Source of the DNA: a virus
Taxonomy: Duplodnaviria; Heunggongvirae; Uroviricota; Caudoviricetes
Length of the DNA stretch: 10,226 nt
IMG/VR virus record: IMGVR_UViG_2690316311_000004
Location: 1-10,226 of that record
Direction: 5' to 3' (one strand)
In this document: piece by piece, positions 1 through 6,934 of the stretch
Layout of the letters: the number at the start of each line of letters is the position of its first letter
How positions within the stretch are numbered: position 1 is the first letter of the stretch
Translations under genes and position numbers: made by a program
Notes under the pieces: model-generated
Database searches by the model: none
What the model was told of the DNA's origin: nothing
The model's input: only the letters and a program-made list of their open reading frames with translations

Positions 1-541
1 ATACGTCGTGCCCGTCTTCCTGTAACTGGTTCAGCAGATTCATCAGCAGTGAGTTCTCCGTCAGGCCGAGAACACCAGACGGCGAATGAATCAGGCTGCG
101 GTAGCCGGGCTTCAGTGGGGCGCTGTATTCTTTTTTGTCTTCCAGCTTGATCGCCTCCATAATGGCGGGCATGAAGCCTGACAAGACCTTCTCCACTTTT
201 GTTTCTTGTTGTCTTAAACGTTTCTCGCATTCAATGAAGTAGCGTCGTACCTGACGACCTTTTTCGTTACGCTCGACCATTGCTAGTTCTTTGGCTGTAT
301 CGAGGGTGAGGTGGTACTCTTTGCGGTTGTGGCCGCCTCTACCAGATGTTTGCTTTCCCAAATTGGAAAGCAAAATATAGTCTTGATTTTCAATGAATTC
401 GTATTCTGAAATGCGATTTGTAATCCATGCTGCAAACACCTTTTTAACACCTAAAAAAGCGTGCAGATCGCGGGCATTGCAAAGTAGGGCTGTTTCGTTA
501 GATATAGTGCCGTTGAATACGGGGATGAGTTGACTGGTCAT
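1..541 (-). CDS. Phage antirepressor, AntA/KilAC-type (N-terminal ~180 codons; 3' end runs off the window start)
   Basis: Minus-strand ORF with ATG at 541-539 preceded by AAGGAGG (plus 547-553) 5 nt upstream; no stop before position 1. Translation [58 protein letters not shown]...[42 protein letters not shown] fits the AntA-type antirepressor N-terminal domain as I recall it. Not in the ORF track because truncated. Confidence 0.8.
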
Positions 542-570
542 GATGACCTCCTTTGAAGTTTTAGTTAGCA

Positions 571-593
571 ATCACCAGTTAGTAGCTGGTGAT
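571..593. promoter_or_regulatory. Perfect 8-bp inverted repeat ATCACCAG-ttagtag-CTGGTGAT about 30 bp upstream of the antirepressor start
   Basis: Visible; lies in the antirepressor promoter/5' leader region on the minus strand. Binding factor unknown. Confidence 0.35.
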
Positions 594-705
594 CGGGTGT
601 CAACTAGAGCCTTCAAAGACGCTCCGGGCATATTCCCCTTTTGGGTATTGTATTACGCCTCTCCACCCGACCTTTGTACGGATGTGACTATGCCAAATTG
701 CAGGC

Positions 706-735
706 ATAAAAAAGCCGCAAAGCTATCGGGTGCGG
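706..735 (-). terminator. Possible weak terminator ending the leftward operon
   Basis: Minus-strand RNA CCGCA-(11-nt loop)-UGCGG followed by CUUUUUUAUG; short stem and long loop. Confidence 0.3.
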
Positions 736-865
736 GTGACCGCTTTGAAGTTCTAGTGCGGTCAGTATGCGATAGCTCTGGCGGCATTGTCAAATCATGC
801 GCCACTGAGTCCAGCAATCTCTGCAATACCAATAGCGAGATAATCGCGATTCGTCAGGCGTGATT

Positions 866-1114
866 TTATTGCATATGTCTTAGCTCCACTGAAGTTGTGA
901 TTTTATATGGGTTGCCTTTTACCTCAATAACACGATGAGGATCATTTTTTAGCTCTTCCGTAATCTTCCGTAATCTTCTAACAGCTGAACTTCGGTGTTT
1001 ATAACGGTAAGTTACAGTTTCTTTTCTCTGCAATACCTCATCATTGCGGTACTTAGTCAAAACCATGACGACTTCAAACCTGACGCCGTTGTGTGCAACC
1101 ATAATCTGCTTCAT
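866..1114 (-). CDS. Small basic hypothetical protein (82 aa), translationally coupled to the upstream methyltransferase
   Basis: ATG at 1114-1112 overlaps the methyltransferase TGA (ATGA overlap); GGGAG about 9 nt upstream. Product MKQIMVAHNGVRFEVVMVLTKYRNDEVLQRKETVTYRYKHRSSAVRRLRKITEELKNDPHRVIEVKGNPYKITTSVELRHMQ is K/R-rich with no family I recognise. Contains a 10-bp tandem repeat that sets the C-terminal frame. The ORF track extends it to 1234, which I consider unlikely. Confidence 0.45.
   Translation of the reverse strand: MKQIMVAHNGVRFEVVMVLTKYRNDEVLQRKETVTYRYKHRSSAVRRLRKITEELKNDPHRVIEVKGNPYKITTSVELRHMQ
955..978. repeat. Tandem repeat of the 10-mer CTTCCGTAAT (2.4 copies) inside the 866..1114 ORF
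   Basis: Directly visible: cttccgtaat at 955-964 and 965-974, then cttc at 975-978. The period is not a multiple of 3, so copy number determines the reading frame of the last ~30 codons. Confidence 0.9.
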
Positions 1115-1761
1115 GCTGCACGCTCCCGCCCCTGGTTGTCTGTTGGTGACAGCGGAGCATTGCTGAATGCATTTGTTAATCCGCCAATATCCAACGCGTA
1201 TCCAGGGTGTAGTTGCACTGCCGGGTCTTCGCACTGATTACCCCAAACATCGAAACCATGAGACGACTGGCGGGCGAACAGTTCAATGCGAGAAACATCG
1301 CCTAACAATTGCACAAGTTTTTCACGAACGATATCTGGTTTTCTTGAATGCTCAAGCCGCGGTGCGGTAAATGACTGAACGATCCCTGCATTAATGCGCG
1401 TAGGTAGTTTTCCCTTTACCGCAAACAGGCAATCTTCACTATTGGCGCGAGTCATGTGCCCCATACCCATAACCAGTTTATCTGGTTGTCGACTACCACA
1501 TTTTATCCACGTGAAGCCCTTCATGGTCATCAGACGGAATCCCCAGGCTTCAACAACTTTTAGTGCTTCGAGTGGTTGTGTTGGCACCCACCACATGGCC
1601 AACAGACAGTTTTCATCGGCCAAATCCCACACAGGAAGGCGGCAGATATCCAGCACACTCATAACCGGATATTTAAAACCGGCACCGCGATTACCATCTG
1701 CGGCTTTGTCCCGGTATACCCAGGGTGGATCTGCATAGATTAGTGTGTATTTCTTAGTCAT
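1111..1761 (-). CDS. MT-A70-family (beta-class) N6-adenine DNA methyltransferase
   Basis: 216-aa ORF with ATG at 1761-1759. N-terminal LIYADPPWVY (DPPW catalytic motif) and C-terminal RIELFARQSSHGFDVWGNQ are characteristic of the MT-A70 family as recalled. Stop overlaps the start of the downstream small ORF. Confidence 0.85.
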   Translation of the reverse strand: MTKKYTLIYADPPWVYRDKAADGNRGAGFKYPVMSVLDICRLPVWDLADENCLLAMWWVPTQPLEALKVVEAWGFRLMTMKGFTWIKCGSRQPDKLVMGMGHMTRANSEDCLFAVKGKLPTRINAGIVQSFTAPRLEHSRKPDIVREKLVQLLGDVSRIELFARQSSHGFDVWGNQCEDPAVQLHPGYALDIGGLTNAFSNAPLSPTDNQGRERAA

Positions 1762-6100: not shown

Positions 6101-6934
6101 ATGAGCAGACATGCAACAGATTGGGCCTGGGAGACAGATCCAGGTAGCTCATCATTAAAGCTCATACTGCTCTCGATGGCTGACAGAGCCGATGAATATA
6201 ACCTCTGCTACCCCAGCATAGAACGCCTCGTTAAAGACACTTGCCTGAATAAAAAAACCGTGCAGGCCGGGCTTATATCGCTCATGAAAATGGGGCTTAT
6301 TTCAGATACCGGAGAGAGAAAGGGAGCGACGAAAAGAGTGCGGGTTTTCTCTCTTAATATAACCAAAAACGGGAACATTAAAGGCAACCGGGAAGGGGGT
6401 AATGAACCCGAAAACGGTAATGTTACCGAAAACGGTAATGTTACCGAAAACGGGAATATACCCAAAAACGGGATGTTGAATGATCCCAAAAACGGGATGT
6501 TGAATGATCCCAAAAACGGGATCCAGAACCAGTCATATAACCAGTCATTTAACCAAGAGAGGGAGAGCAGGACAAAAAGCGGGGATTCTGTGCCTCATGA
6601 CCCCGGCGCAAACAACGCCGTGATGAATAACTTTGTTCCTCCTGGTGGGCCAGGGCAATTAGGCAAATTTGTCATGCATGAACAATGGCAACCATCAGAT
6701 GACTTTCTTCGGAAAAGCTCATTGCAGGGGATCTACCTGGACAGTCTGCCAACGGCACAGGAACTTGCAGAGTTCAGAATTTACTGGATGGCTGAGGGTA
6801 AGGCATACCATCAGGCGCAGTGGGAGCAGAAGCTGGCAAGGCGGCTGCAGATTAGCAGACAGAAGCAATCAACATTACCTGATAACAACGTTCCGCACTG
6901 GAACAGCCCTGAAGCATGGGAGGATTTCTTGTGA
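6101..6934 (+). CDS. Replication initiator (O-like): N-terminal winged-helix replication HTH domain, iteron-encoded linker, C-terminal DnaT-like domain
   Basis: 277-aa ORF with GGAG SD 8 nt upstream. N-terminus WAWETD...SSLKLILLSMADRADEYNLCYPSIERLVKDTCLNKKTVQAGLISLMKMGLIS is replication-initiator HTH-like. C-terminus GKFVMHEQWQPSDDFLRKSSL...ELAEFRIYWMAEGKAYHQAQWEQKLARRLQISR closely parallels E. coli DnaT (GKFAMYPDWQPDADFIRL...[29 protein letters not shown], recalled). Stop overlaps the P start (GTGA). Confidence 0.85.
   Translation: MSRHATDWAWETDPGSSSLKLILLSMADRADEYNLCYPSIERLVKDTCLNKKTVQAGLISLMKMGLISDTGERKGATKRVRVFSLNITKNGNIKGNREGGNEPENGNVTENGNVTENGNIPKNGMLNDPKNGMLNDPKNGIQNQSYNQSFNQERESRTKSGDSVPHDPGANNAVMNNFVPPGGPGQLGKFVMHEQWQPSDDFLRKSSLQGIYLDSLPTAQELAEFRIYWMAEGKAYHQAQWEQKLARRLQISRQKQSTLPDNNVPHWNSPEAWEDFL
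6361..6552. repeat. Origin-like iteron array inside the O-like gene
   Basis: Seven copies of a CC(C/G)AAAACGG(G) core at 6363-6373, 6407-6417, 6426-6435, 6444-6454, 6461-6472, 6485-6496 and 6509-6520, with 18-bp then 24-bp periodicity. Several are palindromic (ATCCCaaaaacGGGAT, GTTACCgaaaacGGTAA), resembling lambda ori iterons (TCCCTCAAAACGAGGGA, recalled). Followed by a tandem 12-mer CCAGTCAT(A/T)TAA x2 at 6529-6552. Confidence 0.7.

Follow-up and report, generated by a model that had tools for sequence, protein, structure and literature searches.

A small open reading frame (ORF) of an Escherichia coli prophage contains a perfect tandem repeat with a unit of 10 nt, a length that is not divisible by three, so that the number of copies sets the frame in which the rest of the gene is read. 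Such an arrangement raises the question of what the repeat represents. It could be the scar of a recent duplication that altered the C-terminus of the protein, or a slipped-strand switch between long and short forms, as a preliminary description of the sequence had proposed, or else a fortuitous array at which whole units are gained and lost by mutation.

A frame-setting repeat in a small early prophage gene

The window, by which we mean the whole 10,226-nt stretch of DNA that was analysed, is identical to part of a phiV10/epsilon15-like prophage located beside guaA in E. coli 2015C-4944. The order of genes in this prophage is RecT, AlpA-like, PerC-like, MT-A70, small ORF, Ant and integrase (Table 1). 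The small ORF adjoins the MT-A70 methyltransferase gene on its downstream side, where the preliminary description had placed it, and the two genes share a 4-nt overlap (ATGA). This overlap, in which the ATG of the small ORF runs into the TGA of the gene directly upstream, suggests translational coupling.

Table 1. Features of the repeat locus in window coordinates, and alleles of the repeat
Feature	Position	Strand	Sequence, residues or evidence
82-aa ORF, phrog_9805, RefSeq WP_000809680.1 'hypothetical protein'	866..1114	(-)	ORF call, annotation
MT-A70 family DNA methyltransferase gene	1111..1761	(-)	PF05063, E 3e-22
Perfect 10-nt tandem repeat, 2.5 units	954..978	(-)	coding strand GAAGATTACG GAAGATTACG GAAGA; encodes R46-E54 (RRLRKITEE)
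Natural +/-10-bp variants	954..978		site is the repeat in the small ORF
Polymorphic base, unit 1, codon 47 2nd position	975	(-)	G = Arg (window), A = Lys (ancestral-like), C = Thr
Polymorphic base, unit 2, codon 52 1st position	961	(-)	A = Thr (window), G = Ala (ancestral-like)
Allele K47/A52			GAAAATTACG GAAGATTGCG GAAGA; 13/15 matches
Allele K47/T52			GAAAATTACG GAAGATTACG GAAGA; 14/15 matches
Allele T47/T52			GAACATTACG GAAGATTACG GAAGA; 14/15 matches
Allele R47/T52 (window)			GAAGATTACG GAAGATTACG GAAGA; 15/15 matches

The product of the small ORF matches phrog_9805 from end to end (residues 1-82 on profile positions 1-82/82, E 6.1e-58) and phrog_7046 weakly (E 7e-4), and lambdoid as well as phiV10-like prophages encode homologues in their early regions. 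It is an early phage protein, small in size and accessory in nature. A comparison with Pfam returned nothing significant (best E 0.09), and in the literature on phiV10 and the methyltransferase we found no mention of the small ORF. An AlphaFold2 model computed on the family alignment (mean pLDDT 86) has strands at residues 13-23 and 26-38, a helix at 41-56, and further strands at 62-64 and 70-80. The predicted fold is beta-beta-alpha-beta-beta, with the repeat inside the single helix. Fold searches with this model gave nothing usable against the PDB (best E about 1) and nothing significant against BFVD (best E 0.016, uncharacterised proteins).

Tandem Repeats Finder reports the array at 954-978 with period 10, 2.5 copies, 100% matches and a score of 50. 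Read in the orientation of the window, the unit is TCTTCCGTAA, present in 2.5 perfect tandem copies; this is the same array that had been described beforehand as 2.4 copies of CTTCCGTAAT at 955-978. The repeat is beyond chance expectation, because none of 300 first-order Markov simulations of the window contained a perfect run reaching its 15 matched positions (periods 4-30). In silico translation with two copies gives the 82-aa protein reading through RRLRKITEELKNDPHRV, with one copy a 51-aa protein that stops after RRLRKS, and with three copies a 60-aa protein that stops after RRLRKITEDYGRAKK. The first two of these products reproduce the frame arithmetic of the preliminary description.

In the majority of phiV10-like prophages, the place behind the MT-A70 gene that the small ORF takes in the window (about 866-1114) is occupied by a different gene. 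About 520 of the 541 E. coli records match the query at its methyltransferase end only, and these records carry a DUF1382 protein or a Ser/Thr phosphatase in its stead. The slot is an accessory-gene exchange site. The beginning of the ORF also differs among prophages: some alleles have a 27-nt insertion after codon 4, which adds SKFNCVHMN and leads to a 91-aa annotation (L044 601-876; P0005, P0007, P0008). The conserved core of the family begins only at about residue 12, and thus prophages differ in the real start codon of the gene and in how it joins the methyltransferase gene. Beyond the other end of the ORF, no intrinsic terminator was detected, and a 323-bp unannotated gap (window 543-865) separates it from the ant gene. 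A promoter-like site in this gap (minus strand 793-764, 10/12 match) could drive ant, and a 107-aa plus-strand ORF at 540-863 is probably spurious.

Age of the reading frame and origin of the repeat

The two-copy length is found in 19/19 complete E. coli genomes that carry the gene, in phage HEMP4 and in 12/12 viral or metagenome contigs, and both the length and the frame are common to all diverged alleles. In a word-indexed protein search the 82-aa query returned a single cluster; more distant relatives surfaced only by an exhaustive HMMER search and by tblastn against phages. The HMMER search, which covered 1.84 billion representatives, identified a 72-aa homologue (P0019) with 52% identity (E 1e-14) that aligns to residues 13-81 of the window protein with no gap. 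Across the repeat the window protein reads AVRRLRKITEELKND and P0019 reads AVKKFGQIAEVIKND, and the C-terminal motif VKGNPxKxxxSVELR is common to both. At the DNA level the corresponding site of P0019 is AAAAGTTTGGGCAAATTGCGGAAGT, with 7/15 period-10 matches against 15/15 in the window. The still more distant PhiR49_2 subfamily of 64 aa (phrog_7046; about 33% identity, pairwise BLASTP E 8e-9) is homologous, in an unchanged frame, on either side of the repeat site; the alignment has a gap of 8 residues immediately following E53/E54. In the family alignment, residues that are invariant or nearly so lie upstream of the repeat (E14, T20, Y22, N24, R37, Y38, K39, R41, A44), within it (E53) and downstream of it (G67, P69, K71, E77).

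Substitution rates estimated against P0019 by the Nei-Gojobori method differ along the gene. For residues 55-81 dN/dS is about 0.29 and in the N-terminal part pN is 0.25 against a pS of 0.78, while the nine repeat-encoded codons have a dN/dS of about 0.9. These values indicate purifying selection on the C-terminal part of the 82-aa protein and mark the repeat-encoded segment as its least constrained part. Since homologues conserve the frame and selection acts on what it encodes, the 82-aa frame is old and the repeat is no duplication scar.

The opposite scenario, in which a recent 10-bp duplication shifted the frame and made a new C-terminus while the 51-aa form is ancestral, had been put forward in the preliminary description. 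A perfect non-triplet tandem repeat does resemble the scar of a duplication, and the one-copy form does reach a stop immediately. Nevertheless, this scenario is refuted: P0019 aligns across the site without a gap, has an equal number of codons there and lacks the DNA repeat; conservation in the 33%-identical subfamily extends to either side of the site and includes the four downstream residues in the same frame; the low dN/dS applies to the very part that would have to be new; the phrog_9805 profile has 82 positions; and one-copy alleles, described below, are rare and nested within two-copy lineages. The preliminary description had also proposed to ask which frame is conserved among homologues, and the answer is the two-copy frame, down to 33% identity.

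An 85-aa relative of P0019 in the sister subfamily (P0022) has a C-terminus that diverges abruptly after NPCKYV; judging from its sequence, it is probably another frameshifted allele.

Several alleles of the repeat itself exist (Table 1). Lysine is present at position 47 in all outgroups and alanine at position 52 in the sister subfamily, and the perfect repeat is therefore derived. The alleles indicate that perfection arose via two point substitutions (at 975 and 961) in a segment of constant length, with matches increasing from 13/15 to 14/15 to 15/15. Each derived substitution raised the identity between the two units: G at 975 makes unit 1 identical to unit 2, and A at 961 makes unit 2 identical to unit 1. 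That both substitutions raised perfection may be due to chance, to selection, or to templated mutagenesis by which a quasi-repeat is corrected.

Between the K47/A52 allele and the window allele, three of the eight substitutions over 261 nt fall in or beside the 25-nt repeat (953, 961, 975), and position 975 occurs in three states (G, A, C). This clustering fits the weak constraint on the repeat codons (dN/dS about 0.9), and templated mutagenesis could also be behind it.

A different possibility is that the direct repeat is a functional site at the DNA or RNA level, bound by a protein or forming a structured RNA, that happens to lie within coding sequence. With a period of 10 bp the motifs would face the same side of the helix, and the repeat is located upstream of the ant gene. 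However, common alleles have only an imperfect version of the repeat, and homologues lack it. No second occurrence of the 10-mer was found in the window when up to 1 mismatch was accepted, and local RNA at the repeat folds no better than shuffled sequence (z = +0.7). We consider such a role extremely unlikely and rejected it on these grounds, namely that the motif is unique in the window, that the z-score is unremarkable and that relatives have the repeat in imperfect form or lack it.

Gain and loss of single units in natural populations

To detect variation in copy number, the amino-acid sequences expected from slippage were looked up as exact matches in a protein collection of about 15 billion entries. 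Both are present there, the 51-aa form as P0016 and the 60-aa form as P0017. Seven contigs have the one-copy product and five the three-copy product, and ten loci were returned. The DNA of six of these (L016-L021) has exactly 1.5 units, GAAGATTACGGAAGAG, and that of the other four (L022-L025) exactly 3.5 units, with the flanks unchanged. Exact one-copy and three-copy alleles therefore exist, so the finding that would have counted against the preliminary description, exactly two copies in all homologues, is not what nature offers. For the two-copy product the index has 1,849 blocks, which is a lower bound; variants thus make up about 0.6% or less of occurrences in public E. coli assemblies and the two-copy form about 99.4%, as counted in contigs and index blocks rather than in independent lineages.

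The variants are spread over several genetic backgrounds. Over 1.65 kb of flanking sequence, the one-unit loci L016-L019 resemble the window (2-5 SNPs), L021 resembles the two-copy locus L002 (0 SNPs) and L020 is distinct (about 29 SNPs). By the same comparison of flanks, the three-unit loci L022 and L023 are L002-like, L024 is window-like and L025 is distinct. Losses are accordingly found in at least three backgrounds and gains in at least three. In a neighbour-joining (NJ) tree built with the repeat itself removed, variant loci occupy tips and are scattered among the two-copy loci, and they differ in their neighbouring RecT/exonuclease recombination modules. The differing flanks, modules and positions in the tree argue that the variants are not one clone; at least six independent events lie behind them, probably about eight.

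Several of these events are very recent. The three-unit locus L022 and the two-unit locus L033 have 0 mismatches over 10,183 bp and differ by one 10-bp gap. Likewise, the three-unit locus L023 has 0 substitutions over 6,081 bp relative to the two-unit loci L002 and L033, the 10-bp insertion being the only difference. Three further variants (L017, L019, L024) are 4-5 substitutions away from the window over 6 kb.

Both L022 (from ERZ1673732, on a 228,072-bp contig) and L033 (from ERZ28586675, on a 228,022-bp scaffold) come from metagenomes and apparently represent the same E. coli region. Possibly one strain was sampled on two occasions, each time in another repeat state.

The 0-unit and 4-unit products of the perfect allele are absent from the collection of about 15 billion proteins, and none of more than 40 loci has a tract longer than 3.5 units. 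Flank-anchored, variable-gap scans of DNA returned two-copy loci only (12/12) in viral and metagenome collections and 0 matches in both scans of GTDB-representative contigs. By themselves, these scans would have wrongly pointed to no variation.

Draft and metagenome assemblies (Logan, ENA) are the source of every variant, and none is found in the 19 complete RefSeq genomes, as would be the case if they were artefacts of sequencing or assembly and the repeat were biologically stable. We regard this explanation as very unlikely. At a frequency of 0.6%, 0 variants among 19 genomes is the expectation. The variants stem from at least 10 samples, among them SRR28786136, SRR3578947, SRR5886022, ERR10854060, SRR8541475, SRR12495199 and ERR4421080, and from at least three assembly pipelines, to judge by how the contigs are named (k141_, NODE_, Logan, scaffold), and they are exact whole-unit changes in otherwise identical sequence. 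Moreover, arrays of 25 bp and 35 bp are short compared with the k-mers of assemblers, so that collapse or expansion in the assembly graph would not be expected.

Gain and loss depend on the perfection of the repeat. Imperfect alleles are common (K47/A52 in 1,018 blocks, T47 in 676 blocks), and a search of the protein collection for the slippage products of the K47/A52 (13/15) and T47 (14/15) alleles, covering those of the main protein variants of these alleles only, gave 0/1,694 blocks. The contrast between 12/1,861 for the perfect and 0/1,694 for the imperfect alleles has a Fisher p of 5.5e-4, in which blocks are not independent lineages. As far as these sequences tell, one-unit gain and loss is restricted to the perfect-repeat allele.

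A mutational hotspot or an evolved switch

The meaning of these variants depends on what they do to the protein. Both the 51-aa and the 60-aa forms are without the end of the helix, strands 62-64 and 70-80, and residues G67, P69, K71 and E77. With the conserved C-terminal strands and residues lost, the slipped forms are likely null; on the predicted structure and the conservation of the family, we take both to be most likely null alleles. A nonsense allele at R41 (CGA to TGA) occurs on the T47 allele in two assemblies (L040, L041, 1501-1623) and is the one type of null allele besides slippage among the subset of variants enumerated. Its existence shows that the small ORF is dispensable in lysogens.

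One reading of such variants is that the site is a contingency locus, in which the repeat is kept for reversible switching of the early protein between ON (2 units) and OFF (1 or 3 units) as a form of bet-hedging for the prophage or its lysogens. Contingency loci are known from Haemophilus, Neisseria and Campylobacter, with tetranucleotide to heptanucleotide and homopolymer tracts, and include methyltransferase 'phasevarions'. The prophage site is like them in that the copy number of an intragenic repeat sets the frame and natural polymorphism occurs in both directions: the unit is non-triplet, the tract is inside an ORF, and gain and loss alleles are both recurrent in nature. In addition, the perfect allele is derived and yet the commonest (1,849 blocks against 1,018 and 676), and both derived substitutions raised the perfection of the repeat.

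Despite these similarities, we consider an evolved contingency locus quite unlikely. Contingency loci often have 6 to more than 20 units, high switching rates and broad distributions of copy number among isolates, whereas the prophage tract, at 2.5 units, is much shorter than known phase-variable tracts and is in a single state in 99.4% of occurrences. Of the features that define the class, the site has a copy number that sets the frame but neither a long tract nor broad copy-number polymorphism. The variants are at the tips of the tree, 0-5 SNPs from their two-copy relatives; a return from the one-copy state would rest on 5 nt of homology only; and the 4-copy and 0-copy forms were not found in the protein collection. 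The site also differs from phasevarions in that the repeat is in a small hypothetical gene beside the methyltransferase gene and not inside the methyltransferase gene itself. Thus the slipped-strand switch proposed in the preliminary description holds in one part, since exact one-unit losses and gains do recur in independent backgrounds, and fails in the other, since their rarity (about 0.6%), their position at the tips, the tract of 2.5 units and the null-looking products leave an evolved switch unsupported.

A related scenario is a young contingency locus, in which low-frequency and partly reversible switching of the phage early protein has itself come under selection after the two perfecting substitutions. 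We judge this to be decidedly unlikely as well. If it were true, the early protein might, for example, impose a cost on the lysogen, be toxic to it or be targeted by host defence.

Rarity, position at the tips, the 2.5-unit tract and null-looking products all favour a mutational hotspot over an evolved ON/OFF switch. We therefore consider it likely that the array is a fortuitous perfect repeat which has turned into a slippage hotspot, that its variants are null and that no evolved switch is involved. Under this hotspot explanation, point substitutions in a weakly constrained helix segment of conserved length, within an old small phage early protein, would have produced the perfect repeat, and its perfection would have made the site a hotspot of replication slippage. 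Nascent and template strands would re-pair one 10-nt unit out of register via 15 nt of homology, and such mispairing would remove exactly 10 bp, leaving 1.5 units, or add exactly 10 bp, making 3.5 units. Either change would shift the frame, giving the 51-aa and 60-aa products that are most likely null. The slipped alleles would keep recurring but stay rare (about 0.6%) and recent through mutation-selection balance or drift in a dispensable accessory prophage gene. The sequences show the repeat, the exact one-unit alleles, their recurrence across backgrounds, their restriction to the perfect allele and the ancestry of the two-copy frame; we infer slippage as the mechanism, and likewise that the shortened proteins do not function and that switching has no adaptive role. 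A loop of 10 nt is probably beyond the range of MutHLS mismatch repair, which would help a two-unit tract to reach a detectable frequency.

The closest known parallel is the (CTGG)3 tract of lacI, a spontaneous frameshift hotspot of E. coli attributed to Streisinger slippage (Farabaugh et al. 1978, as summarised in PMC12606429); PMC8233506 is a further source cited for slippage hotspots of the lacI type. Both sites are short, perfect, non-triplet tandem repeats in coding sequence (PMC12606429), both undergo exact one-unit loss and gain that recur at one site and produce frameshifted null alleles, most likely so in the prophage, and neither seems to involve an evolved switching function. They differ in architecture, the prophage unit being 10 nt in 2.5 copies and the lacI unit 4 nt in 3 copies, and in the kind of evidence, which is natural population genomics for the prophage and a laboratory mutation spectrum for lacI. 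The prophage site has the features of a hotspot of this type: a perfect repeat of at least 2 units, whole-unit changes, recurrence and dependence on perfection. It is a further instance of a well-known kind of mutational hotspot, here in a conserved prophage gene.

Taken alone, one more slippage hotspot is a modest finding. The locus nevertheless provides a natural case in which 2.5 units of 10 nt suffice for detectable, recurrent gain and loss across thousands of assemblies. As slippage alleles are seen only after point mutations had perfected the repeat, it documents the birth of a hypermutable site, and it offers a baseline for weighing claims of 'phase variation' made from sequence only. 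For annotation it carries a warning: where draft assemblies show a 51-aa or 60-aa form, this is the 82-aa gene with a frameshift and no gene of its own.

Elsewhere in the window, a cluster of tandem repeats at 6398-6555 comprises 4.1 copies of 18 bp (6398-6471), 2.6 perfect copies of 24 bp (6461-6522) and 2.4 copies of 12 bp (6527-6555). By transfer of coordinates to NZ_CP027390.1, this cluster is inside a replication gene annotated as 'DnaT-like ssDNA-binding domain'. By analogy with lambda O, these repeats look like the iterons of a phage replication origin located within the initiator gene.
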